Counted from the stretch's first letter, positions 5,028 to 17,611 are shown. The stretch is DNA of 64,000 nt from Candidatus Dormiibacterota bacterium (GCA_035534915.1 DATLQZ010000111.1:16258-80257), one strand, 5' to 3'. The notes: generated by a model not told the origin, from the letters alone. Translations and numbers: made by a program.

Positions 5028-5606
5028 ATGTCGAGCGTGATGATCCCGGACAGGTGCTCCGAAGCTCAGCTGGCGAAACTCGCCGCTGGAGCGATCGTCG
5101 CTGGGCTCGACCCCGAGACCATGTACCGTGATTATCATCAGGCGATCCTTCGCTACGTACGCTGCCGCGTGGGGACGTTGGAGATTGCCGAAGACCTAGT
5201 CGCGGACGTGTTCCTCCGGGCAGTGGCGAAGGCCCCTGAGTACCGCGCTCTGCGGGACACTCCATTGCCCTGGCTTTACACGATCGCCGCTCGAAGGATC
5301 GCGGATCATTACCGGCGTGGACAGGCTGCCTGCAGGTTGGACGCGCGGCCGGACCTGGTCCGAGTTGATTCTGACCCTGCCGACGAGGTGGTGCTTAGGG
5401 CGATGGTGGCAGATGTCTGGCTGGCCTCGTTGGCTCTGCCGCTGACACAGCGCACAGCTCTCTGGCTTTGCTACGGCGAGGAGCTGGATATGGGTGAAAT
5501 CGCAGTGGTTATGGGTAAGAGCACTGACGCGGCGAAGCTCCTCGTTCACCGCGCAAGACGAGGCGTCCGGTCCCGCCTCGAGTCAGGCGCGGCGCTGGAG
5601 GCGTAG
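5028..5606 (+). CDS. ECF-type RNA polymerase sigma-70 family factor
   Basis: Region 2 (AEDLVADVFLRAV...PWLYTIAARRIADHYRR) and region 4 HTH (LTQRTALWLCYGEELDMGEIAVVMGKSTDAAKLLVHRARRGVRSRL). Confidence 0.85.
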   Translation: MSSVMIPDRCSEAQLAKLAAGAIVAGLDPETMYRDYHQAILRYVRCRVGTLEIAEDLVADVFLRAVAKAPEYRALRDTPLPWLYTIAARRIADHYRRGQAACRLDARPDLVRVDSDPADEVVLRAMVADVWLASLALPLTQRTALWLCYGEELDMGEIAVVMGKSTDAAKLLVHRARRGVRSRLESGAALEA

Positions 5607-5717: not shown

Positions 5718-7889
5718 TCAGTGGGAAGGCAACCCCGGGTGACCCGCTAGCAGAAGGTCCGGACGATGGTGCCACCGCTCGTAGAAGCGTCGGAAGTTCA
5801 GCTTGCTGAGTCGCTCCCGCTCGTCGGGCTCGGTGTCCTCCCAACCTCGGTGCTCGTGCATGACGGCGGACAGCTCCGGGAGCCTCATCTGGACCAGGCC
5901 GGCCGAGCGCAGGGTGAAGCAGAGGTGGAAGTCCAGCATCCGATAGAAGCGAAAGCGCTCATCCAGCAGCCCCAGCTCGGTGAATCGGTGTCGACGAACG
6001 GCCAGGCAGTATCCGTCGATTGCGTCCACCTCTCGCTCGTCGGAGTCGAAGAAGTCACGCATGTCAGAGCTGCGTGCGCCCCACCTTCCCACGGCTCCGA
6101 CCCCAGGGTCAGCGAGAGCCTCAAGGATTGGGGAGAAGCAATCTCCCACCAGCTCCACCCCGGTATCGAGGATGAGCAACGCCTGTCCCAGGGCCGCCCT
6201 GATGGTGATGTTGCGCGCGGCTCCCTCGCCCAATTGGTGATCGGCGTGAAATACCCGTAGGTTGGGGTCGGAGCCCGCAGCCTCAGCCAGCACTGCGGCG
6301 CAGGCAGGGCCGGCGTCGTTGTCGACCACGAGAACCTCTACCCGATGTCCTGCCTGGTTGCGTCTCACTGAGTCGAGGCACCGCCTGAGGTCTTCCGGAT
6401 ACCCCGACGTCACGACGCTGACCGAGATGTCGAAGCTATCGGGCTCGCCCCGCATATCGACTACCTGCCGCGGGGACGAGACCAATCCGCGACGCAGGTC
6501 CGAAGCTGTCGCTCGGCGGTATGCGGTGGAGGCGTGGTTGTCTTCGGGAACGACCCTCGCAGCGAGCAGCGCTTCCCTTTCACGATCCGCCCCCGGGAAC
6601 TCCCGAGCCGCCCGCTGCCGCTCGCGTGCGCCCGCGGAGATCACCCACGGCCCGTCTGCGGGGCGCTGCGAGGGCGGCTGATCGAGCCCGAGTCCAAGCA
6701 AGCTGTCCGCCTCCCTCAAGCCTAGCGCTCGCGTGGCCGGGGCAACTTGGTTGTCACCGGCAAACCGGAAGAGGTCGGCCAGAGCTCGGGGAAGGTTGAG
6801 GTCGTCCTCCAGCGCCGACTGGACCCGGGTCCGTACCTGCTCTGCCGCCTCAGGGTCGGCTCCCTCGGTCGGGCCCGACCCGACTCGCCGCAGCCGCTGG
6901 AGGCCCCGATCCGCGGCTTCCAGCGAAGAGAGGGTGAAGTTGAGCCTGGTGCGGTACCGCACGGTCGCGCAGAGGAAGCGGAATGAGAGGGGGTCAAAGC
7001 CACGCTGCACCAGGTCGTCGACGGTGTAGACGTTGCCGGAGGACTTGGCCATTTTGATCCCGTCGGCCAGCAGGTGCTGTCCGTGGACCCACTGCCGCAC
7101 GAACTGCCGCCCGGTCGCCCCTTCGCTTTGGGCGCGCTCGTCCTCGTGGTGGGGGAATATGTTGTCAACCCCGCCCGTGTGGATATCGATCTGCTCTCCG
7201 AGATAGGCCATCGACATCGCCGAGCACTCGATGTGCCAGCCGGGGAAGCCCATGCCGTAGGCGCTGTCCCAGACCATCAGTTGTCGCCCCGGATCAGCCT
7301 CGCGCCAGAGGGTGAAGTCAGCTGGATGTCGTTTCGATGGATCCAGCTCCACCTCGACTCCTAGCTGAAGTTGCCCCATCGCGTTGCCCGAGAGATGGCC
7401 GTAGTCGGGGTAGGCAGCCGTGTCGAAATAGACGGTACCTCCAACTCGGTATGCGAGGCCCCGCCGCAGCAGACCATCGATCAGGATCAGCATCTGCGGG
7501 ATGTGGTCGGTCGCTCGAGGGAAGACATCCGCCGGCTCGATTCCCATCGCCTTCTCGGCCCGGTGGAACTCCTCCTCGAACTCTCCAGCTATCTCCCGGG
7601 GGGTGCGCCCCGCAGCTAGAGCGGCCGCGATGACCTTGTCGCCGCCTCGCTCGGCCATCTCCTGGCGCATGTGGCCCACGTCGGTGATGTTCTTGACGTG
7701 CAACACATCCCAGCCCTGGGCCCTGGCGACTCGCTTTATCCAGTCGGCCATCAGATAGGACCGCAGGTTGCCGATATGGACCGAGCGATACACCGTCGGG
7801 CCACAGCTGTACATGGTCAGGCGACCCGTCTTGAGAGGCTCAATCTTGCGGATTTCACGAGAGAGGGTGTCGTAGAGTCGGAGCATCAA
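5718..7889 (-). CDS. cysS: Cysteine--tRNA ligase fused to a C-terminal GT2-like glycosyltransferase domain (723 aa)
   Basis: aa 1-460 form a complete class-I CysRS: HIGN, NITDVGH, GFPGWHIECS, KMAKSSGN, LEDDLNLPRAL, and the C-terminal ARERQRAAREFPGADRERE helix. aa ~486-690 are GT-A/GT2-like: SVSVVTSGYPEDLRRCLDSV, VLVVDNDAG, LLILDTGVEL, AIDGYCLAVRRHRF, DERFRFY. No stop or frameshift lies between the two parts. Confidence 0.9.
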   Translation of the reverse strand: MMLRLYDTLSREIRKIEPLKTGRLTMYSCGPTVYRSVHIGNLRSYLMADWIKRVARAQGWDVLHVKNITDVGHMRQEMAERGGDKVIAAALAAGRTPREIAGEFEEEFHRAEKAMGIEPADVFPRATDHIPQMLILIDGLLRRGLAYRVGGTVYFDTAAYPDYGHLSGNAMGQLQLGVEVELDPSKRHPADFTLWREADPGRQLMVWDSAYGMGFPGWHIECSAMSMAYLGEQIDIHTGGVDNIFPHHEDERAQSEGATGRQFVRQWVHGQHLLADGIKMAKSSGNVYTVDDLVQRGFDPLSFRFLCATVRYRTRLNFTLSSLEAADRGLQRLRRVGSGPTEGADPEAAEQVRTRVQSALEDDLNLPRALADLFRFAGDNQVAPATRALGLREADSLLGLGLDQPPSQRPADGPWVISAGARERQRAAREFPGADREREALLAARVVPEDNHASTAYRRATASDLRRGLVSSPRQVVDMRGEPDSFDISVSVVTSGYPEDLRRCLDSVRRNQAGHRVEVLVVDNDAGPACAAVLAEAAGSDPNLRVFHADHQLGEGAARNITIRAALGQALLILDTGVELVGDCFSPILEALADPGVGAVGRWGARSSDMRDFFDSDEREVDAIDGYCLAVRRHRFTELGLLDERFRFYRMLDFHLCFTLRSAGLVQMRLPELSAVMHEHRGWEDTEPDERERLSKLNFRRFYERWHHRPDLLLAGHPGLPSH

Positions 7890-8017
7890 TTGATGCTACC
7901 AGTGACTGGTCGCAGGGCCCCGACACCACCACCGTTGACTTGACCCGGGCCCTACCCAGGGTGGTGGCAGGCGGTGCAGACGGATATGGAGGGGAAGCGG
8001 GAGTGGTTGAGCAAGCG

Positions 8018-8698
8018 ATGTCAACGCGGACTCTGGTCCTGATCGGCGGCAGCGAATGGATGCCGGGATGCGAGGCGCTGGACCTGTGGTGGGGCTCCAG
8101 AGCCGCACGCAAAGCCGTCACGGTGGTGACCACGGCAGCCCAGGATGGTCCGGAGCGAGCCATGAGACGGGCAGAGGGGTACTTCAGCTCCATCGGCTTC
8201 GCGGCAGATCACTGTCGGATCCAGACCGCCAAGGATGCCGAAGATCCGCGGCTGCTTGGTGTCCTCTCCCAAGCAACCGCGATATTCCTCTGTGGAGGAG
8301 ACCCGAGTGCTGCGCGGCGGGTGCTGGTGGGCTCCCCGGCCGGGCGGCTGCTGCTGGACCGCTACCGGGAGGGAGTCCCTCTGGTCGGCTCCAGCGCGGG
8401 CGCCATGGTGCTGGCTGGGGCCTGCTTGGTGCCGAGCCAGCACTTCGCTGTCCAGCCCGGCCTGGGGATTGTGCCGCGGGTACTGGTGGTCCCCCACTGG
8501 AACTCAGCAGGTGCGGAATGGAGGCGGCGGGTTCACGAGCTGGTGGACCAATATGAAGTGCTGGCGGTTGATGAGCTGACTGGTGTGTGCTGGGACGGAA
8601 CCAGTTGGAGCGTGCTCGGGGCTGGATCGGCCTGTGTCGCCACCTCCACGGCTGAGCTGGTGGCAGGAGGGGGGATACCCTCGCCACCGATAGAATGA
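8018..8698 (+). CDS. Peptidase S51 / cyanophycinase-like (type-1 glutamine-amidotransferase-like fold)
   Basis: LVLIGGSEW..., FLCGGDP and VGSSAGAMV (GxSAG nucleophile elbow). I preferred the internal ATG at 8018 over the ORF-track start at 7940. Confidence 0.65.
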   Translation: MSTRTLVLIGGSEWMPGCEALDLWWGSRAARKAVTVVTTAAQDGPERAMRRAEGYFSSIGFAADHCRIQTAKDAEDPRLLGVLSQATAIFLCGGDPSAARRVLVGSPAGRLLLDRYREGVPLVGSSAGAMVLAGACLVPSQHFAVQPGLGIVPRVLVVPHWNSAGAEWRRRVHELVDQYEVLAVDELTGVCWDGTSWSVLGAGSACVATSTAELVAGGGIPSPPIE

Positions 8699-8755: not shown

Positions 8756-10069
8756 GTGATGGCTGAGCTGGTCCCCAACCGGCTGGAAACCCTGGTCTCG
8801 CTGTGCAAGCGCCGCGGCTTCGTGTACCAGAGCAGCGAGATCTACGGTGGCATCAACGCCGTCTACGACTTCGGTCCCCTGGGGGTTCGGCTGCGACGGA
8901 GGATACGCGACCTCTGGTGGCGGGAGATGGTGGAGCTTCGCGATGACGTGGAAGGGGTGGAGGCGGCGATCCTCATGAACCCGATGGTCTGGCAGGCCTC
9001 CGGGCATCTGTCCAATTTCAGCGACCCGCTGGTCGACTGCCTGGGGGAGTGCCACCAGCGTTGGCGTTCAGACCACCTAGAGGGGGATCGTTGTCCAAAC
9101 TGCGGAGGTCCCCTAAGTGCGCCGCGGCAGTTCAACCTGATGTTCAAGACGTTCATCGGACCGGTCGAGGACGAGGGCTCGGTGGTCTACCTGCGGCCCG
9201 AGACAGCGCAGGGGATGTTTGTGAATTTCAAGAACATCTTGGGCAGCTCGCGCCAGCGCATCCCATTCGGCATTGCCCAGATCGGTCGCAGCTTTCGCAA
9301 TGAGATTTCGACTGGTAACTTCATCTTCCGCCTCCGCGAGCTGGAAATGATGGAGATGGAGTGGTTCACCACCCCCGGTGACGATGCGCGGTGGTTCGAA
9401 TACTGGTGTGAGCAGAGAATGGGGTGGCACCAGAGCTTGGGCCTCAGGCCAGAGCATCTGCGGCTGCGACCGCACGGTGAGGATGAGAAGGCTCACTACG
9501 CTCTCGCCTCCTCCGACATTGAGTACCTGTACCCGTGGGGGTGGGGGGAGTTGGAGGGAATCGCTCGGCGTGGCGACTTCGATTTGACGCGCCACCAGGA
9601 GGCCAGTGGCAAGGATCTCCAGTACACAGACCCGGCGACTGGGGCTCGCTTTCTGCCCTTCGTGGTAGAGCCGGCACTGGGGGTCGACCGCACCTTCCTG
9701 GCACTGCTGCTGGATGCCTACGCGGAGGAGGAGGTGCGAGGTGAGACCCGCGTCGTGCTGCATCTGAGCCCTCGAGTAGCACCGTTCCAGGTGGCGGTGC
9801 TACCGCTCTCCAAGAAGCAAGAGCTGACAGAGGTCGCGCGTAAGCTTGAGGGTGACCTCCGGAGCCACTTCGCGACCGACTATGACGACACCCAGTCGAT
9901 TGGGAAGCGCTATCGGCGTCAGGATGAGATCGGCACTCCGCTGGCTGTCACCATCGACTTCGATACTCTCGAGGACCACGCGGCGACGCTTCGAGATCGT
10001 GACACGATGGAGCAGGTGCGGATCCCCCTGGATCGGCTTGCCGAAGTTTGCGCGGAGAGACTGAAGTGA
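8756..10069 (+). CDS. glyQS: Glycine--tRNA ligase (dimeric class II, GlyQS type)
   Basis: LVSLCKRRGFVYQSSEIYGGINAVYDFGPLG, YLRPETAQGMFVNF, GRSFRNEISTGNFIFRLRELEMMEMEWF, and a C-terminal anticodon-binding domain. Confidence 0.95.
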   Translation: MMAELVPNRLETLVSLCKRRGFVYQSSEIYGGINAVYDFGPLGVRLRRRIRDLWWREMVELRDDVEGVEAAILMNPMVWQASGHLSNFSDPLVDCLGECHQRWRSDHLEGDRCPNCGGPLSAPRQFNLMFKTFIGPVEDEGSVVYLRPETAQGMFVNFKNILGSSRQRIPFGIAQIGRSFRNEISTGNFIFRLRELEMMEMEWFTTPGDDARWFEYWCEQRMGWHQSLGLRPEHLRLRPHGEDEKAHYALASSDIEYLYPWGWGELEGIARRGDFDLTRHQEASGKDLQYTDPATGARFLPFVVEPALGVDRTFLALLLDAYAEEEVRGETRVVLHLSPRVAPFQVAVLPLSKKQELTEVARKLEGDLRSHFATDYDDTQSIGKRYRRQDEIGTPLAVTIDFDTLEDHAATLRDRDTMEQVRIPLDRLAEVCAERLK

Positions 10070-10930: not shown

Positions 10931-11704
10931 TTAGAACCCTGGGAAAAGGCTTCTCAACTCGTCGAGATCAACGCCGCCAGCCTTCGCCGGAGGGGTGTGG
11001 CCGCTATCAAGTCGACCATAGACGAGCCGGACCAGAGCCTCAGCCGGCAGGGTTAATGCAACCGCTCCGCTGCCACTCTCGCTCCCGCGCAGAAGCACTG
11101 TGTCACTGACCTCAAGGTGGAAGTGCCGCTCTGGGTCGCTCGTGGAGATGCCAAGCCGAAGCACCTTCGTCCCAGCCTTACCGGTCCTCGCCGCCAGCTC
11201 GGGAACGGTATCGATTAGGAGATTGACGGCGCTGGATCCCACGAGTGCCTTGGAGTCCAACGCCACTGCGATGTCCCAGGTGTGAATCGCGTGCTCGCTG
11301 AGTCGCATCCGCGCCAGCCCGGCCCAATCGAGGTCCCGACCGAAGAGGCTTAGGTGAAACCGCCTCTGGTCCTCCGCGCCGGTCTGCTCCAAACGCGTCA
11401 GGAGTTCCGCATCCCCGCGGATCGCGTCGCGGGCCTGGGCCTCCGGCGTGCGCGCATTCCAGCTGTCCCAGATGGGTTGGAACTGCTCACGACCGGGGGC
11501 TGCCTCATCACTGAGACCGGCTTTCAGGAAGAGTTGGAAGATCTCGGCCTGGGAACCCAGATGGGAAAGTACGTCTGCGATCGACCACTCGGTGGCATAC
11601 GACGTCGAGCGGAGCGCTCCGCTCGACAGGTCGCTGCTCACACTCCGCAGCCGCTGATGCGAATCGCGCAGCGCCGAGATCCAGGGTGTCGGATCGGTTG
11701 CCAT
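10931..11704 (-). CDS. DinB/maleylpyruvate-isomerase-family (mycothiol-dependent type) protein with SCP2-like C-terminal domain
   Basis: EWSIADVLSHLGSQAEIF metal-binding helix. ATG at 11704 is preceded by GGAGGA, so I preferred it over the ORF-track start at 11761. Confidence 0.65.
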   Translation of the reverse strand: MATDPTPWISALRDSHQRLRSVSSDLSSGALRSTSYATEWSIADVLSHLGSQAEIFQLFLKAGLSDEAAPGREQFQPIWDSWNARTPEAQARDAIRGDAELLTRLEQTGAEDQRRFHLSLFGRDLDWAGLARMRLSEHAIHTWDIAVALDSKALVGSSAVNLLIDTVPELAARTGKAGTKVLRLGISTSDPERHFHLEVSDTVLLRGSESGSGAVALTLPAEALVRLVYGRLDSGHTPPAKAGGVDLDELRSLFPGF

Positions 11705-11830
11705 GGCGTTCCTCCAAAGTCGAGTTTCAGGGAAGGGTGGATAAGCTGGCGGTTGGCGCAATCGACCGTGAGTCGAAGGTCTTAAGGTCGTTCGGCGCCG
11801 AGCGCTGGACCGGGCCAGCTCTCCTCCATC

Positions 11831-13344: not shown

Positions 13345-14745
13345 TCAGAGTGCGAACTCGTGGTGGATTGCCACCACCGCCTCCGTGAGTTCATCTGCCA
13401 GCACCGCTGCGGAGACGCTGAGCTCGGATGATCCTTGGGAGATCGCCACGACGTTTATGTGACGCTCCGCCAGTGCGCCGAACAGGCGAGCCGCGATGCC
13501 CGGGGTGCCGCGCATCGCCTCACCAACTACGACGACTATTCCGACTCGGGGGGTCTCGTCAATAGACCCCAGACCACTCGCCGATGACTCGAGATCGCGA
13601 AGGCGCTCCAGATGGGCTCCCATCCGCAGGCCGTGCTGGCCATCCACGGCGAAGCAGAAGACGTTGTCCGCGGACGACTGGGTCACCATGAGGGTTGGCA
13701 CCCGCTCTTCGTCGAGCGCCCGCAGGACCGACGTGGCCACCTTGGTGAAGGAGACTCCGTCGGCCCCTCCGACGGTGAACAGTCGGGCGTCGGAGGTGTG
13801 GGCGATGGCCCTTACTCCCGGCGCGTTCCGCACCCCCGGCGCGATCGTGGTGCCGTCCCGCTCGGGCGCCAGCGTGTTGCGTATTCGGACCGGGACGCCG
13901 AAGCGATGGGGCAGCTCCATGGAGTTGGGGTGGAGCACCTTGGCGCCGAAGAAGGCAAGCTCGATTGCCTCGCGATATGAGAGCTCGGGGATCACCCGGG
14001 CGTGCGGCACCAGCCGCGGGTCGGCAGTCATGACTCCGTCCACATCGGTCCAGATCCAGATCTCGTCCGCGGGCAGCAGAGTCCCCAGTATCGTCGCCGT
14101 GTAGTCGGAGCCGCCCCGTCCCAGGGTGGTGCACTGTCCTTCCGCCGTCTCCGCCCTGAAGCCGGTGACGACCGGAATGATCCCTACTTCCAACATCGGC
14201 TTGAGGGTTGACTGGATCCTGTCCCGGCTGGGGTTGAGCAGGGGCGCCGCCTGCCCGAAGTGGTCATCGGTGACTATCAGCAGGGCGGAATCGACCGATT
14301 CGGCCGGCAGCCCCAGAGCCCTCAGCGAAGAGGCAACCAAAACGGCCGCCATCAGCTCGCCAAGGCTGGAGATTGAGTCCATCTCCTGGGCAGTCACCAG
14401 TCCGCGCCGCGAGATACCGTCGCATACCCCCCGCAGCGTCGCCAGATGGGTCAGGAGGTGGGATCGAACCTGCTCGGCCTCCAGCTCGGGAGCCACGGCC
14501 TGGGCGCAGTGGAGGTGATCCTGTTCCAGCTGGTCCGCCAGTGCCCTCCATCTTCCGATCTCGCCCTGTGAGGCGGCGCGGGCCGCCTCCACCAGTGTGT
14601 CGGTGGTCTCGCCCATGGCGGATACCACCACCAGAAGCGGCCCGGCCGCCCGCCGGTCTCGGATTATCTGAGAGACCCTGGCGATGCGCTCGGCAGACCC
14701 CAGGGACGTTCCGCCAAACTTCATGACCTTGGTCCCAGCGGTCAT
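13345..14745 (-). CDS. lysC: Aspartate kinase (monofunctional, C-terminal ACT domains)
   Basis: KVMKFGGTSLGSAERI, VVVSAMGETTD, LGRGGSDYTA. Confidence 0.9.
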   Translation of the reverse strand: MTAGTKVMKFGGTSLGSAERIARVSQIIRDRRAAGPLLVVVSAMGETTDTLVEAARAASQGEIGRWRALADQLEQDHLHCAQAVAPELEAEQVRSHLLTHLATLRGVCDGISRRGLVTAQEMDSISSLGELMAAVLVASSLRALGLPAESVDSALLIVTDDHFGQAAPLLNPSRDRIQSTLKPMLEVGIIPVVTGFRAETAEGQCTTLGRGGSDYTATILGTLLPADEIWIWTDVDGVMTADPRLVPHARVIPELSYREAIELAFFGAKVLHPNSMELPHRFGVPVRIRNTLAPERDGTTIAPGVRNAPGVRAIAHTSDARLFTVGGADGVSFTKVATSVLRALDEERVPTLMVTQSSADNVFCFAVDGQHGLRMGAHLERLRDLESSASGLGSIDETPRVGIVVVVGEAMRGTPGIAARLFGALAERHINVVAISQGSSELSVSAAVLADELTEAVVAIHHEFAL

Positions 14746-14896
14746 CCCCGCGACCCCATGACTTGGATGCCTCCCTCAGCCCGCCAGCCCTTGCCGACGA
14801 TGGCCTGGAGGGGCCCCCTCCTCGCCAGGGAGACCGCAGCGGGCAGCTCGGATCCGGCTCCTGCGGCGACCAGATGCGCCTGGTCAGGTCGACTGG

Positions 14897-14938
14897 GGCC
14901 GGAGGCGCTGACGGTTCTCAACGTCCGCGCCTCCGGCC
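14897..14938 (-). terminator. Perfect 12-bp GC stem (GGCCGGAGGCGC-N18-GCGCCTCCGGCC) 27 nt downstream of the thrC stop, inside the 219-bp thrC-ask spacer
   Basis: Read directly. No U-tract follows, so it could be a terminator or part of an ask leader structure. Confidence 0.35.
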
Positions 14939-14964
14939 GACGGACTGGGATCTCGTCCCTCGAC

Positions 14965-16206
14965 TCATGCTACCCCGGCAGGCTCGTTCAGAAGGCTCTC
15001 GAATGCATTCAGCCGAGGCGCCAGGGCCTTCGTGGCCGGGAATGTCTGGCTGATGGCGTCGGTGGTCTTCAGCCCATTTCCGGTGATGCACAGGACCGTG
15101 GTCTGGTCGGGCGAGATAGTCCCTTGCGCAAACAACTTGGCCGCGCTGGCGACGGTGACCCCAGCCGCGGTCTCCCCGAAGACCCCCTCTCTTTCCGCCA
15201 GCAGACGGATTCCGGCAACGATCTCGTCGTCAGTAGCGGACTCAGCCCCGCCGCCGCTGTCCTTGATCACCTGGAGCGCCCGGTGCCCGTCGGCGGGGTC
15301 TCCGATGGCGAGAGAGTGGCAGATGGTGTTCGGCCTCTCTGGCACTATGTCGAGCGACCCCCGCCGAGCGGCGTTGGCGATGGGCGCGCATCCGGATGCC
15401 TGCGCACCGAACAGCCGAACCTGGTGGTCCGCCACCAATCCGAGCTGCACCAGCTCACGGAATCCCTTGGCGATTCGGCCGATCTGGGCTCCTCCCGCCA
15501 TGGGCACAACGACGTTGTCTGGCAGGCGCCAGCCCAACTGCTCAGCTATTTCGTAGGCGACTGTCTTTGAACCCTCGGCGTAATAGGCGCGCAGGTTGAT
15601 GTTCACGAATCCCCACGCGTGGGCCTCTGCGATCTCTACGCACAGCCGATTCACCTGGTCGTAGGTCCCATGAACCCGCACCAGCTTGGCTCCGTAGACT
15701 GCCGTTGCCAGCAGTTTGGCGGGCTCCAAGTCGGCTGGGACCAGGATCCACGCCTGCAGCCCCATCCGAGCCGCCTGAGCCGCCACTGCATTGGCCAGGT
15801 TGCCGGTCGAGGCGCAGCCGACAACCGTGAAGCCGAAGGCTCTGGCCTGAGACAGCGCCACTGCCACAACCCGGTCTTTGAACGAGAGGGTGGGAAAACA
15901 GACCGAGTCATTCTTGAGGTGCAGCTTGTCAGCGCCCCATTGGGAACCCAGCTCGGGGGCGTGCACCAATGGGGTGAAACCCACCGGCAACCCAGAGCGA
16001 TGCTCTGCCGCGACCGGAAGCAATTCGGCGTACCGCCAAATGTTGGTCGGTCTGCTCTCGATCTTGGCGCGGGTCAGGAGGCTGCGGATGGTTTTGAGGT
16101 CGTAAGCTACCTCAAGGGGAGTGAAGCACTCCTCACAGAAGGTGATCGGCGCGTTGCCGTAGGGACGGTCACAGCGGGGACATTGCAGCTGAAAGAGGTC
16201 GGACAT
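14965..16206 (-). CDS. thrC: Threonine synthase (with N-terminal zinc-ribbon)
   Basis: CPRCDRPY...FCEEC zinc ribbon; PLP-lysine motif FPTLSFKDR; C-terminal GNGLKT. Confidence 0.9.
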   Translation of the reverse strand: MSDLFQLQCPRCDRPYGNAPITFCEECFTPLEVAYDLKTIRSLLTRAKIESRPTNIWRYAELLPVAAEHRSGLPVGFTPLVHAPELGSQWGADKLHLKNDSVCFPTLSFKDRVVAVALSQARAFGFTVVGCASTGNLANAVAAQAARMGLQAWILVPADLEPAKLLATAVYGAKLVRVHGTYDQVNRLCVEIAEAHAWGFVNINLRAYYAEGSKTVAYEIAEQLGWRLPDNVVVPMAGGAQIGRIAKGFRELVQLGLVADHQVRLFGAQASGCAPIANAARRGSLDIVPERPNTICHSLAIGDPADGHRALQVIKDSGGGAESATDDEIVAGIRLLAEREGVFGETAAGVTVASAAKLFAQGTISPDQTTVLCITGNGLKTTDAISQTFPATKALAPRLNAFESLLNEPAGVA

Positions 16207-16552
16207 TGCTTTGGGTGCTCCTTTGCAGGTGGAGTGGAAGGGAATGGTTCGAGCGGGGCATTCAGGTGCGCGAGCGAGCAGTCACCTGAAGTAGTTACCG
16301 GGGGAGCACCAGCGCTGAGGCGCTAGAGCTTGGTTCGCGTGTCCCCCGTGCCACGCCGGCGCATTCGCCGACCCACCGAGCAACTGACCACGGCCATCCC
16401 GACCGTCCGTTCGTTTTTGGACGCGCCCTCTCGATGCGAGACGGGCAGGCCTTCACCCAAAGTCAGCATGCCAACACTCTAGCGCGAAATGACCAGGCTG
16501 CGCCACCAGGCCGCCTCGCGAACCCCATACCTGGGACACTCATTGCCTAACT

Positions 16553-17611
16553 ATGCAGAGATTTCGAGTCGGCGTCTTAGGCGCTACGGGGGCGGTGGGG
16601 CAGTATCTCGTCGGCCTGCTGGCCGAGCATCCGTGGTTTGTCCTCACCGAGGTGGTGGCCTCTGACAGATCCGCTGGCCGTCCTTATGCCCAGGCTGTCA
16701 GATGGAGAATGCCTACCGCCATTCCGGAGGCCGCCCGCGATCTCACGGTCAAGGATCTTCAATCGGAGCTGGACTGCGACCTGCTCCTCTCCGCCCTGGA
16801 TACGGGTGTGGCTGAGGTTGCTGAGGAGCCGTTTGCGAGGGCAGGATTTCCTGTCATCAGCAACTCTCGCAATCACCGCATGGACCCGGACGTCCCTTTG
16901 GTCATCCCTGAGGTGAACCCTGGCCACCTCGATGCCATCTCAAGCCAGCGCCGAGGCCGAGGGTGGGAAAGAGGACTGCTTCTGACCAACCCAAACTGCT
17001 CCACGATCGGGCTGGCGATGGCGCTCAAGCCTCTTCAGGACCGGTTCGGGCTTGCTGCGGTGCAGGTGACCACCATGCAGGCCATCTCCGGCGCCGGCCT
17101 AGACGGGATCTCGGCGGCCGCGATCCACGACAACGTAATCCCCCACATCGCGGGGGAGGAGGAGAAGCTGGAGGCTGAGCCGAAGAAGATTCTGGGCAGC
17201 TTCGACGGCGCGGCGTTTCGGTCGGCGGAGATCGCCATCAGCGCCCACTGCAACCGGGTGCCGGTTCTGGACGGCCATATGGAGTCGATCTCGGTCAGCC
17301 TCCGGTCCGAGGCCAACTCCCAGGAGGTGGCGGATGCCTTTCGGGAGTTTCGGGCCGATCAGTTGGTCCGCGATCTGCCGTCAGCTCCCATCCATCCGAT
17401 ATTGCTCACCGCGGATGAGTTCAGGCCGCAGCCGCGGCTGGACCGAGGCGTTGCGGCGGGGATGTCCGTGGTGGTCGGGCGGGTGAGGCCGTGCGCGGTG
17501 CTGGACTGGAAGTTCACCGCGCTGGTGCACAACATGGTACGGGGGGCCGCCGGAGCCGCCATCCTCAACGCCGAGTTGCTGGTGGCAGGAGGCTGGCTTG
17601 ACACGGTCTGA
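16553..17611 (+). CDS. asd: Aspartate-semialdehyde dehydrogenase
   Basis: VGVLGATGAVGQ NAD-binding motif, active-site NPNCSTIGL, and an HCNRVPVLDGH histidine. Confidence 0.9.
   Translation: MQRFRVGVLGATGAVGQYLVGLLAEHPWFVLTEVVASDRSAGRPYAQAVRWRMPTAIPEAARDLTVKDLQSELDCDLLLSALDTGVAEVAEEPFARAGFPVISNSRNHRMDPDVPLVIPEVNPGHLDAISSQRRGRGWERGLLLTNPNCSTIGLAMALKPLQDRFGLAAVQVTTMQAISGAGLDGISAAAIHDNVIPHIAGEEEKLEAEPKKILGSFDGAAFRSAEIAISAHCNRVPVLDGHMESISVSLRSEANSQEVADAFREFRADQLVRDLPSAPIHPILLTADEFRPQPRLDRGVAAGMSVVVGRVRPCAVLDWKFTALVHNMVRGAAGAAILNAELLVAGGWLDTV

Follow-up and report, generated by a model that had tools for sequence, protein, structure and literature searches.

We analysed a cysteinyl-tRNA synthetase (CysRS) gene in a stretch of 64,000 nucleotides of Candidatus Dormiibacterota DNA (DATLQZ010000111.1:16258-80257; this whole stretch is called the window in the following). 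The gene lies on the minus strand at 5718..7889 and encodes an intact CysRS that continues, in frame, into an ordered linker and a glycosyltransferase (GT)-like domain of the GT-A fold. The GT-like domain is tied to CysRS by fusion or by adjacency. Together with a CysRS-type anticodon-binding domain (ABD) it forms a module. In Dormibacteria, Dehalococcoidia and other Chloroflexota, CysRS ends with this module, whereas in Ca. Limnocylindria and some Actinomycetota the module is a separate protein of ~320 aa with a duplicate ABD. The first-pass annotation of the window had correctly described a full-length CysRS that is fused in frame to a GT2/GT-A domain. It had missed that the GT-like domain travels with the CysRS ABD as a module and also occurs unfused beside cysS. 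As the best reading of these data we favour, with somewhat more confidence than doubt, a housekeeping-type CysRS with an accessory transferase that is linked to CysRS or tRNA-Cys. The protein belongs to the aminoacyl-tRNA synthetases that bear an additional accessory domain with a free-standing paralogue; its novelty is functional and is not peculiar to the window.

Aminoacyl-tRNA synthetases are among the best-studied enzymes, and where a domain has been appended to one of them, it is usually a sign of additional biology, for instance editing, signalling, substrate channelling or the binding of tRNA. In the present case CysRS carries a complete enzyme-like fold, that of GT-A, in a bacterial radiation that is large and abundant in the environment (Dormibacteria, Dehalococcoidia including SAR202, and other Chloroflexota). 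The fusion and the conserved adjacency are strong comparative-genomic evidence for an unrecognised function linked to cysteine decoding or to tRNA-Cys. If the domain is active, the candidates would be a new tRNA modification or a new link between translation and the chemistry of sugar nucleotides; an inactive domain would be a new type of accessory or regulatory module of aminoacyl-tRNA synthetases. The family also offers access to the biology of tRNA-Cys in lineages of which few members have been cultured.

CysRS and a GT-A domain in one open reading frame

The open reading frame (ORF) is not interrupted across 5718..7889 (minus strand; stop codon at 5718-5720), and the junction between its two parts, at about 6430-6510, is in frame. 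Read from a TTG at 7889, it encodes 723 aa. The real start is likely the ATG at 7886, one codon downstream, because the resulting sequence MLRLYDTLS fits a canonical CysRS N-terminus and because an identical database protein has the corresponding length of 722 aa. Three contigs of independent origin encode this protein (P0001, 100% identical), whose database name is 'MAG TPA: cysteine--tRNA ligase [Candidatus Dormibacteraeota bacterium]'. The translation contains the motifs HIGN, GWHIECS, KMAKS, LEDDLNLPRAL, SVSVVTSGYPEDLRRCLDSV, VLVVDNDAG, LLILDTGVEL and AIDGYCLAVRRHRF. No break in base composition was seen at the junction, and within the 64-kb window there is no second copy of cysS or of the GT domain.

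The CysRS body is intact: the catalytic residues are kept and the match to the cysS model is full length. Pfam tRNA-synt_1e (PF01406) matches aa 16-326 (E 1.3e-89), and the NCBIfam model TIGR00435 (cysS) scores 357.4 bits against a cutoff of 340, with aa 3-459 covering model positions 1-465 of 466. In a PDB sequence search, aa 2-459 align with residues 1-460 of E. coli CysRS (1li5). The catalytic body (aa 1-334; 6888..7889, minus strand like all parts of the gene) is a Rossmann fold, covered over its whole length by NF011108 and matched by PDB entries 8qhp and 1li5. It is followed by a helical bundle of the DALR_2 type (aa 335-414; 6648..6887), which carries LEDDLNLPRAL, matches DALR_2 weakly at aa 355-378 and is spanned by TIGR00435. 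The C-terminal ABD of the CysS_C type (aa 415-460; 6510..6647) is likewise matched by TIGR00435 to its end. Conservation was evaluated in a homologue set consisting of the 120 best-scoring clusters at 90% identity. The zinc ligands C29, C222, H247 and E251 are each present in 120/120 homologues; judging by the motif context (GWHIECS, FPHHE.E), they correspond to C28, C209, H234 and E238 of the E. coli enzyme. The first signature has the form HIGN instead of HIGH (aa 38-41), with H38, G40 and N41 found in all 120 homologues and slight variation at I39. W218-C222 (GWHIEC) is invariant in the same set. In the K-M-[AS]-K-S loop (KMAKS, aa 279-283, in the window protein), K279, M280 and K282 are found in 120/120 and S283 in 119/120, and position 281 is either A or S. 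The ABD follows the family consensus R...R.......AD..R..L...G....ED...T..R and is predicted by AlphaFold2 (AF2) as a helix-helix-hairpin (H11-23, H27-39, E42-46, E51-55) with a predicted local distance difference test (pLDDT) of 92-97. The copy in the window is diverged: the usual Gly is replaced by Arg, Pfam CysS_C gives no match, and a search of this ABD alone against the PDB gave no significant match, the sequence being too diverged. The intact catalytic residues, the variable gene context of housekeeping type (see below) and the orthology to annotated cysS genes of unfused lineages suggest that the genome relies on the fused enzyme as its housekeeping CysRS.

The assignment of the C-terminal part to the GT-A fold, made in the first-pass annotation, is borne out by sequence and structure comparison. 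Pfam Glycos_transf_2 (PF00535) matches aa 489-618 with 58.8 bits against a cutoff of 23.3, and a profile of the domain (GT2-like; aa 486-712; 5754..6434) recovers K4CP (E 6e-16) and 6p61 (E 6.5e-14) from the PDB. The AF2 model of the domain has a pLDDT of 93.6 and a predicted TM-score (pTM) of 0.91. With this model, Foldseek finds the GT-A fold, with the WrtF fucosyltransferase, ppGalNAc-T2, AvpGT and K4CP at probability 1.00 and TM values of 0.65-0.77 for the nearest structures (WrtF, polypeptide GalNAc-transferases and AvpGT). The equivalent of the DxD motif, L-D575-T-G-V-E579 (6153..6170), was located by column counts and by alignment to 6p61 and K4CP: in the profile alignment, D575 corresponds to the first Asp of DxD in 6p61 (DADD) and in K4CP (DSD, DCD), and D653 to the Asp of the K4CP GED motif. 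The Asp of the (G)ED motif is the catalytic base in GT2 enzymes, and by analogy with GT-A enzymes in general, H678 or H680 would be the C-terminal metal ligand. It had been noted earlier that the DxD position reads DTG and the ED.D position RMLDF, with the suggestion of altered catalysis. The DTG sequence is indeed non-canonical, but it is a property of the whole family (DT[G/S]) and not of the window, and its Asp, D575, is found in 120/120 fused homologues. RMLDF is quoted correctly; it holds the invariant D653, which aligns with the (G)ED Asp. E579 is present in 119/120 homologues and might stand in for the missing second carboxylate of DxD. D523, after beta2, is Asp in 103/120, and D550-H551, G554 and R559-N560 are nearly invariant. 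In the C-terminal half, Y627, R633, R647, Y649, R650, D653, H680, W683, S695 and N698 are invariant and H678 occurs in 119/120. Part of these residues makes up the signature [FY]R[FY]YRxLD(653), 24 aa, H678-x-H680-x-x-W683 (5841..5954).

The GT domain is under purifying selection. Mean column conservation is 0.76 for the catalytic body of CysRS, 0.62 for the GT domain, 0.53 for the linker and 0.47, the lowest value, for the helical and ABD part. The GT domain is thus under stronger constraint than part of the synthetase itself. It has the GT2 fold and two of the three classical acidic positions, with a DxD motif that is non-canonical throughout the family. The GT domain is probably catalytically active in the fused clade, given the invariance of D575 at the start of DxD, of D653 at the (G)ED position and of the His pair.

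Between the two enzyme-like parts lies a segment (aa 461-485; 6435..6509) that had been described as a linker of ~25 aa. A segment of this length is present, but it is not a floppy tether: its motif [IV]SSP.[ED]V...EPD is conserved in the fused as well as in the stand-alone proteins described below, and it is predicted to be ordered (pLDDT 89-98). An AF2 model of aa 405-723 of the window protein, calculated from 130 fused and stand-alone sequences, has a pLDDT of 94.7 and a pTM of 0.87 and comprises the helix-helix-hairpin ABD, the ordered linker (pLDDT 90-98) and the GT-A domain. ABD, linker and GT domain are probably one ancient, rigid module, as far as the model can indicate. A fold search with this two-domain model found no PDB entry that covers ABD and GT domain together.

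The fused architecture is present in all 120 best clusters (694-765 aa, PF01406 and PF00535, 47-100% identity). Those with names come from metagenome-assembled genomes (MAGs) of Dormibacteria, Chloroflexota, Dehalococcoidia and Anaerolineae, and two are labelled Nanopelagicaceae and Verrucomicrobiae. For a scan of genomes, a degenerate DNA pattern of the GT signature was built by hand and first checked on the window, where it gave one match with none expected. The signature was found in at least 119 GTDB species-representative genomes. The great majority of these belong to Dehalococcoidia (including SAR202), Dormibacteria and unclassified Chloroflexota, and several complete long-read chromosomes are among them. 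Of the signature ORFs, 92 are not truncated by the 5' edge of the locus, and 89 of these contain the CysRS motif GWHIEC. Two of the exceptions are broken assemblies (L076, a run of N; L083, a frameshift), and the third, L115, looks like an ORF with ABD and GT domain and without a CysRS body, on a 3.9-kb contig. In annotations, the fused proteins are named cysteine--tRNA ligase only. The fusion is the usual form of the cysS gene across large parts of Chloroflexota, so that the earlier view of a novel architecture holds for its function and not for its occurrence: no functional description of either the fused or the stand-alone architecture was found in the literature that we searched, which included surveys of aminoacyl-tRNA synthetase evolution and of cysteine-encoding diversity in Chloroflexi and did not extend to many subscription papers. 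Four loci (L046, L101, L058 and L100) carry a Chloroflexota-type fusion on contigs binned as Ca. Bathyarchaeia, Ca. Micrarchaeia and Desulfarculaceae, which is due either to mis-binning or to horizontal transfer.

A joining of two neighbouring genes by sequencing error, during assembly or annotation, can practically be dismissed. The identical in-frame architecture recurs in 120/120 of the closest clusters, the same protein is found on the three independently sourced contigs of P0001, at least 119 species genomes have the fusion, long-read chromosomes among them, and the linker is conserved and structured. By the same clusters, contigs and genomes, a stop or frameshift at the junction is excluded, in agreement with the first-pass annotation.

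The ABD and GT-like domain as a separate protein

When the GT profile was searched against 1.84 billion representative proteins, it recovered the fusions and, in addition, recurrent proteins of ~300-345 aa that start with Met and have the GT-like domain from residue 55-80 onwards. The N-termini of these proteins resemble the C-terminus of CysRS. Pfam CysS_C (PF23493) was found in 10/10 stand-alone candidates tested, with five of the scores exceeding the gathering threshold; P0128, which is among the ten, is a fusion fragment at a contig end. In four independent contexts on long contigs, no CysRS catalytic body was present within 8-10 kb of the stand-alone gene. A family profile built from 17 stand-alone proteins detected 4270 relatives at E<=1e-20. 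The best 120 of these are all 299-352 aa long, 48 of them have precomputed matches to PF23493 and PF00535, and the named sources are MAGs of Ca. Limnocylindrales, Chloroflexota, Solirubrobacterales and Actinobacteria. Their names are glycosyltransferase, hypothetical protein or, at JGI, cysteinyl-tRNA synthetase. There is no curated NCBIfam model for the stand-alone family; the best one, MftF, gives 24-58 bits against a cutoff of 280. The GT profile also gives high scores to giant proteins (P0143, P0150, P0156-P0159 and others; 1500-4400 aa) with 5-10 tandem GT2-like stretches, which are probably unrelated multi-glycosyltransferase polyproteins.

The module that is common to both forms consists of a CysS_C-type ABD, a linker with the motif [ST]S..[ED]V...EP and a GT-A domain with LDT[SG]VE..GD, [FY]R[FY]YR..D and HxH..W. 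The window copy fits this signature and can be aligned over its whole length with 55 further fused members and with 74 stand-alone ones. The ABD hallmarks R, R, AD, G and D are invariant in the stand-alone family across deep divergence. In the GT-like domain, Y649, R650, D653 and H680 are invariant in fused and stand-alone proteins alike, and H678 is kept in at least 90%. In a neighbour-joining tree on 309 shared columns, a distance tree on samples of top hits, the 56 fused and 74 stand-alone sequences form two pure clades. The pattern points to a single fusion or fission event of ancient date, as opposed to genes that broke repeatedly.

The position of the stand-alone gene was assessed in a metagenome scan with an alignment of 29 stand-alone sequences. 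Among the first 600 pattern matches, 311 relatives were confirmed, and the best 80 loci were analysed. In a bulk Pfam scan of the neighbours, the combination 'tRNA-synt_1e + CysS_C' ranks top. By tblastn, a CysRS gene was found in 32/80 loci, always downstream and on the opposite strand (tail-to-tail), at a distance of 50-2200 bp. The proportion depends on how much flanking sequence is available: cysS is present in 32 of the 38 loci with a downstream flank of at least 0.8 kb, in 28 of 31 with at least 1.5 kb, and in 19 of 20 with at least 2.5 kb. Upstream of the stand-alone gene no CysRS gene was found (0/24 loci with at least 2.5 kb of upstream sequence). The neighbouring unfused CysRS is complete, has its own ABD and no GT domain, and belongs to the same H[IV]GN/KMAKS subtype as the CysRS of the fusion. 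Apart from three partial, edge-truncated matches, these orthologues are 41-54% identical, and their database relatives are cysteine--tRNA ligases of ~500-530 aa from Ca. Limnocylindria and Limnocylindrales. The adjacency does not just reflect recent common ancestry, as the 32 loci fall into 24 clusters at 80% identity, pairs of them share as little as 57% identity, and the genes on the opposite side vary. Many of the stand-alone and unfused cysS genes carry Limnocylindria or Limnocylindrales labels, although two Ca. Limnocylindria MAGs (L095 and L106) have the fused form. Fused and unfused arrangements may thus share one class or even one genome.

These observations bear on the possibility that the domain is an independent glycosyltransferase, acting on the envelope, a polysaccharide or a small molecule, that was fused to CysRS by chance or for co-expression and whose ABD in the stand-alone form is a leftover of fission. 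Its nearest relatives are ordinary sugar transferases (MftF, K4CP, 6p61, WrtF, ppGalNAc-T), an acidic surface is typical of soluble glycosyltransferases, and the neighbourhood offers no tRNA-related partner, all of which would fit. A leftover ABD, however, is difficult to reconcile with hallmark residues that are invariant in deeply diverged stand-alone proteins, and reciprocal monophyly points to an ancient split instead of sporadic breakage. The unfused gene stands beside cysS in 19/20 loci with enough flank and in 24 clusters, and the fused architecture is kept in at least 119 species. We therefore consider an independent glycosyltransferase quite improbable.

Two further gene associations were seen near stand-alone genes. 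In one lineage (L122:744-1814 and L123-L126, from Chloroflexota MAG GCA_016196905.1 and Logan contigs), a stand-alone gene whose product lacks D575 lies on the same strand, 29 bp downstream of a gene of the FemAB family (aminoacyl-tRNA-dependent peptidyltransferases). The pair may be a tRNA-linked operon; it is confined to one cluster at 90% identity and absent elsewhere. Genes for Rhomboid-family proteases are located 0.2-3 kb from stand-alone genes at L120:11226-12596, L121:8070-9227 and L127:11576-12787, on contigs of high GC content (68-75%) without an adjacent cysS. A link between Rhomboid and the stand-alone gene was rejected, as only 1/54 neighbours in a larger survey belonged to this family.

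Candidate functions and gene neighbourhood

The GT-like domain never leaves the CysRS-type ABD and is doubly linked to cysS, which suggests that the substrate of the GT domain is connected with tRNA-Cys or CysRS. In the mechanism that we propose for an accessory transferase, the CysRS body would charge tRNA-Cys normally, and the GT domain would be an active transferase that uses a nucleotide-activated donor. The donor would be bound by D523, D575/E579 and H678/H680, with D653 as the catalytic base. The acceptor would be recruited or positioned by the ABD and could be tRNA-Cys, in its anticodon arm, or something that is bound together with tRNA-Cys. As the GT domain is attached to the ABD, the anticodon arm would be its most plausible reach. 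A more specific version of this proposal, namely a tRNA-Cys-directed glycosyltransferase that is guided by the ABD and transfers a sugar onto a nucleoside of the anticodon arm, appears rather unlikely to us. If true, an RNA glycosyltransferase would for the first time be known from bacteria, in this case with a physical coupling to aminoacylation. That the family represents a new kind of bacterial RNA-modifying system accordingly has a minority chance of similar size.

Several observations weigh against an accessory transferase linked to CysRS or tRNA-Cys. Bacterial tRNA-Cys is not known to contain a glycosylated nucleoside. The third position of the DxD motif is G in 71 and S in 46 of the 120 fused homologues and never Asp. 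In the stand-alone proteins, D523 and D550-H551 are not conserved, D575 is missing in 5 of the first 17, and some family members may be pseudo-enzymes. The mean isoelectric point (pI) of the GT-like domain is 5.9 in the fused and 5.2 in the stand-alone proteins, with a net charge of -6 to -9 (pI 5.4 and net charge -10 for the window copy); the stand-alone ABD is likewise acidic, unlike typical RNA-binding modules. The basic charge that would be expected of an RNA-facing domain is thus not borne out, which counts against a generic role in tRNA binding. The stand-alone gene and cysS converge and do not form an operon, and some stand-alone lineages have no adjacent cysS, namely those of P0198, P0168, P0207 and P0129 (loci L120, L121, L127 and L122-126). 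The fusion gene has no conserved operon partner, with no neighbour family exceeding 15/75 loci. No tRNA genes, including those for tRNA-Cys, were found in the window or in 51 fusion loci, and no tRNA-modification genes or other conserved partners accompany the fused or the stand-alone form. Finally, the evidence for a rigid module consists of pTM and pLDDT values.

The variation at acidic positions also bears on whether the domain is a pseudo-glycosyltransferase, that is, a non-catalytic GT-A appendage with a ligand-sensing or structural role that modulates binding, charging or hand-off of tRNA-Cys. In a variant of this explanation, it would sense the nucleotide-sugar pool, and the stand-alone protein with ABD and GT-like domain would be a trans-acting factor that binds tRNA-Cys or CysRS. 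The second Asp of DxD is absent in all members, and in the first 17 stand-alone proteins, where D523 and D550-H551 vary and five lack D575, the residues of the C-terminal half remain: the equivalents of Y627, R633, Y649, R650, D653, H678, H680, S695 and N698 are invariant in all 17. The FemAB-associated protein, lacking D575, would fit an adaptor role in its one lineage, and the Trbp111-like C-terminal domain of MetRS, which has free-standing homologues, would be a parallel. On the other hand, D575 is invariant in larger samples, namely in the 130-sequence alignment and in the stand-alone clade adjacent to cysS, where LDTSVEPTGD is nearly invariant. LDT[SG]VE..GD and D653 are invariant in the fused and the large cysS-adjacent clades, as would be expected under selection on catalysis, and an acidic domain is poorly suited for generic RNA binding. 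On balance, we regard a purely non-catalytic domain as unlikely, while granting it some weight.

The context of the fusion gene in the window is of the housekeeping type, with RecO, a sigma factor of the extracytoplasmic function (ECF) group, a peptidase S51 and a class II aminoacyl-tRNA synthetase. A survey of 75 downstream and 63 upstream neighbours of other fusion loci by Pfam found lineage-specific housekeeping families only: Na/Ca exchanger (15), MeaB (11), pyruvate kinase (10), FabH (7) and RecO (6).

This context is relevant to the earlier proposal that the fusion serves the synthesis of a thiol cofactor, in which, as in MshC/MshA-like systems, the GT domain would make or hold a glycoside and the CysRS domain would ligate cysteine onto it. 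The proposal has some attraction, as CysRS paralogues serve mycothiol synthesis and the MshC structures 8hfm and 3c8z are recovered as homologues. Genes for PIG-L deacetylases (MshB/BshB-type) occur among the downstream neighbours in 3/75 loci. The window also contains the mycothiol-type DinB neighbour to which the first-pass annotation had pointed: a protein with MDMPI_N and MDMPI_C (mycothiol maleylpyruvate isomerase-like, DinB superfamily) is encoded at 10931..11761 (-). This gene is real, but its presence is incidental: it lies 3 kb from the fusion gene among unrelated housekeeping genes, has YceI-like and TetR genes on its flanks and no further thiol-pathway gene in the vicinity, and does not recur. 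The MshC model gives 218.4 bits against a cutoff of 485.1, whereas the cysS model passes its own. The tRNA anticodon-binding domain is kept, no deacetylase or acetyltransferase is a conserved partner, and GT4 genes are absent among the surveyed fusion neighbours. MshA and BshA are GT4 enzymes of the GT-B fold and not GT2/GT-A. Moreover, the stand-alone family keeps the GT-like domain and the ABD without the Cys-activating body. Because the MshC cutoff is missed, the ABD is kept, pathway neighbours are lacking and the GT-like domain persists without a Cys-activating body, the thiol-cofactor logic finds no support, and we judge this explanation to be very improbable.

Some further genes in the window were noted. 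The gene for peptidase S51 (cyanophycinase/dipeptidase E family; 7940-8698, plus strand) is located just upstream of the fusion gene and divergent from it, and Peptidase_S51 adjoins the downstream side in 3/75 other fusion loci. Also upstream and divergent is the class II aminoacyl-tRNA synthetase (8756-10069, plus strand; tRNA-synt_2b and HGTP_anticodon; 437 aa), which is probably HisRS; two synthetase genes thus lie within ~1 kb. The ECF-type sigma-70 gene (5028-5606, plus strand) is convergent with the fusion gene. Sigma-70 genes are found next to or near two stand-alone genes (L127:8775-9407 and L120:3675-4166) and in 1/75 other fusion loci, and this adjacency is probably a coincidence. 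A cluster for amino-acid biosynthesis at 13345-17611 comprises an aspartate-kinase-like gene (AA_kinase and ACT; 13345-14745, minus strand), a gene for a pyridoxal phosphate-dependent PALP enzyme (14965-16206, minus strand) and one for aspartate-semialdehyde dehydrogenase (16553-17611, plus strand).

Comparison with known systems

With canonical bacterial CysRS (E. coli CysS, PDB 1LI5/1U0B; TIGR00435, subtype NF011108/PRK14536), the fused enzyme shares the zinc ligands, the KMSKS-type loop, the helical bundle and the ABD. It differs by ~260 additional C-terminal residues, which form the ordered linker and the GT-A domain, and by the HIGN signature of its family in place of HIGH. MshC (L-Cys:GlcN-Ins ligase; TIGR03447, PDB 3C8Z/8HFM) has a homologous catalytic fold, and it connects the activation of cysteine with sugar chemistry, the idea from which the earlier proposal started. 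However, the matches to the MshC model and structures stop at aa 378-382, whereas the fusion has a full ABD, and it is found without gene context of the msh type.

Among GT2 enzymes of the GT-A fold (MftF, TIGR03965; K4CP, 2Z86; 6P61; WrtF, 9OM*; GalNAc-transferases), the fold and the positions of D523, D575 and D653 are shared. By inspection, the pattern ...Y.....RR...F.....D....R..G......P....H appears to resemble that of soluble GT2 enzymes. The family is distinguished by a second DxD position that is always G or S, with a Glu four residues past D575, and by the family-specific invariant residues R647, Y649, R650, H680, W683, S695 and N698. In every case, a CysRS-type ABD and a conserved linker stand before its GT domain. 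The scores are far below every curated NCBIfam cutoff, that of MftF included (42-58 bits against 280).

An aminoacyl-tRNA synthetase domain that exists as a separate protein elsewhere is also known from MetRS, which can carry a C-terminal Trbp111/EMAPII-like domain, with Trbp111 and CsaA occurring as free-standing proteins. The present module resembles these in its distribution between appended and separate forms. In contrast to Trbp111, which is a small and basic RNA binder of the OB-fold, it contains an acidic, enzyme-like GT-A domain.

A complete aminoacyl-tRNA synthetase joined to a transferase has a precedent in LysX, which exists as a second copy alongside the housekeeping LysRS. In Mycobacterium tuberculosis, LysX is a LysRS fused to a lysyl-transferase of the MprF type (PMC2713425). 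It is thus a precedent for a synthetase that feeds or positions the substrate of its partner, and the resemblance is architectural only: the partner in LysX is a membrane aminoacyl-transferase that uses aminoacyl-tRNA, whereas the partner in the fusion is a soluble GT-A domain at the anticodon-binding end.

Glycosylation of a nucleoside in the anticodon loop of a tRNA is documented for one kind of enzyme only, the vertebrate RNA glycosyltransferases QTGAL and QTMAN, which transfer galactose and mannose onto queuosine-34 of tRNA-Tyr and tRNA-Asp (PMC12518689). Their target position is where a domain attached to the ABD would be expected to reach, tRNA being a hypothetical acceptor in the case of the fusion. 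Bacterial tRNA-Cys (anticodon GCA) is not known to carry queuosine. QTGAL and QTMAN are eukaryotic, free-standing and act on queuosine, and we claim no sequence relationship.

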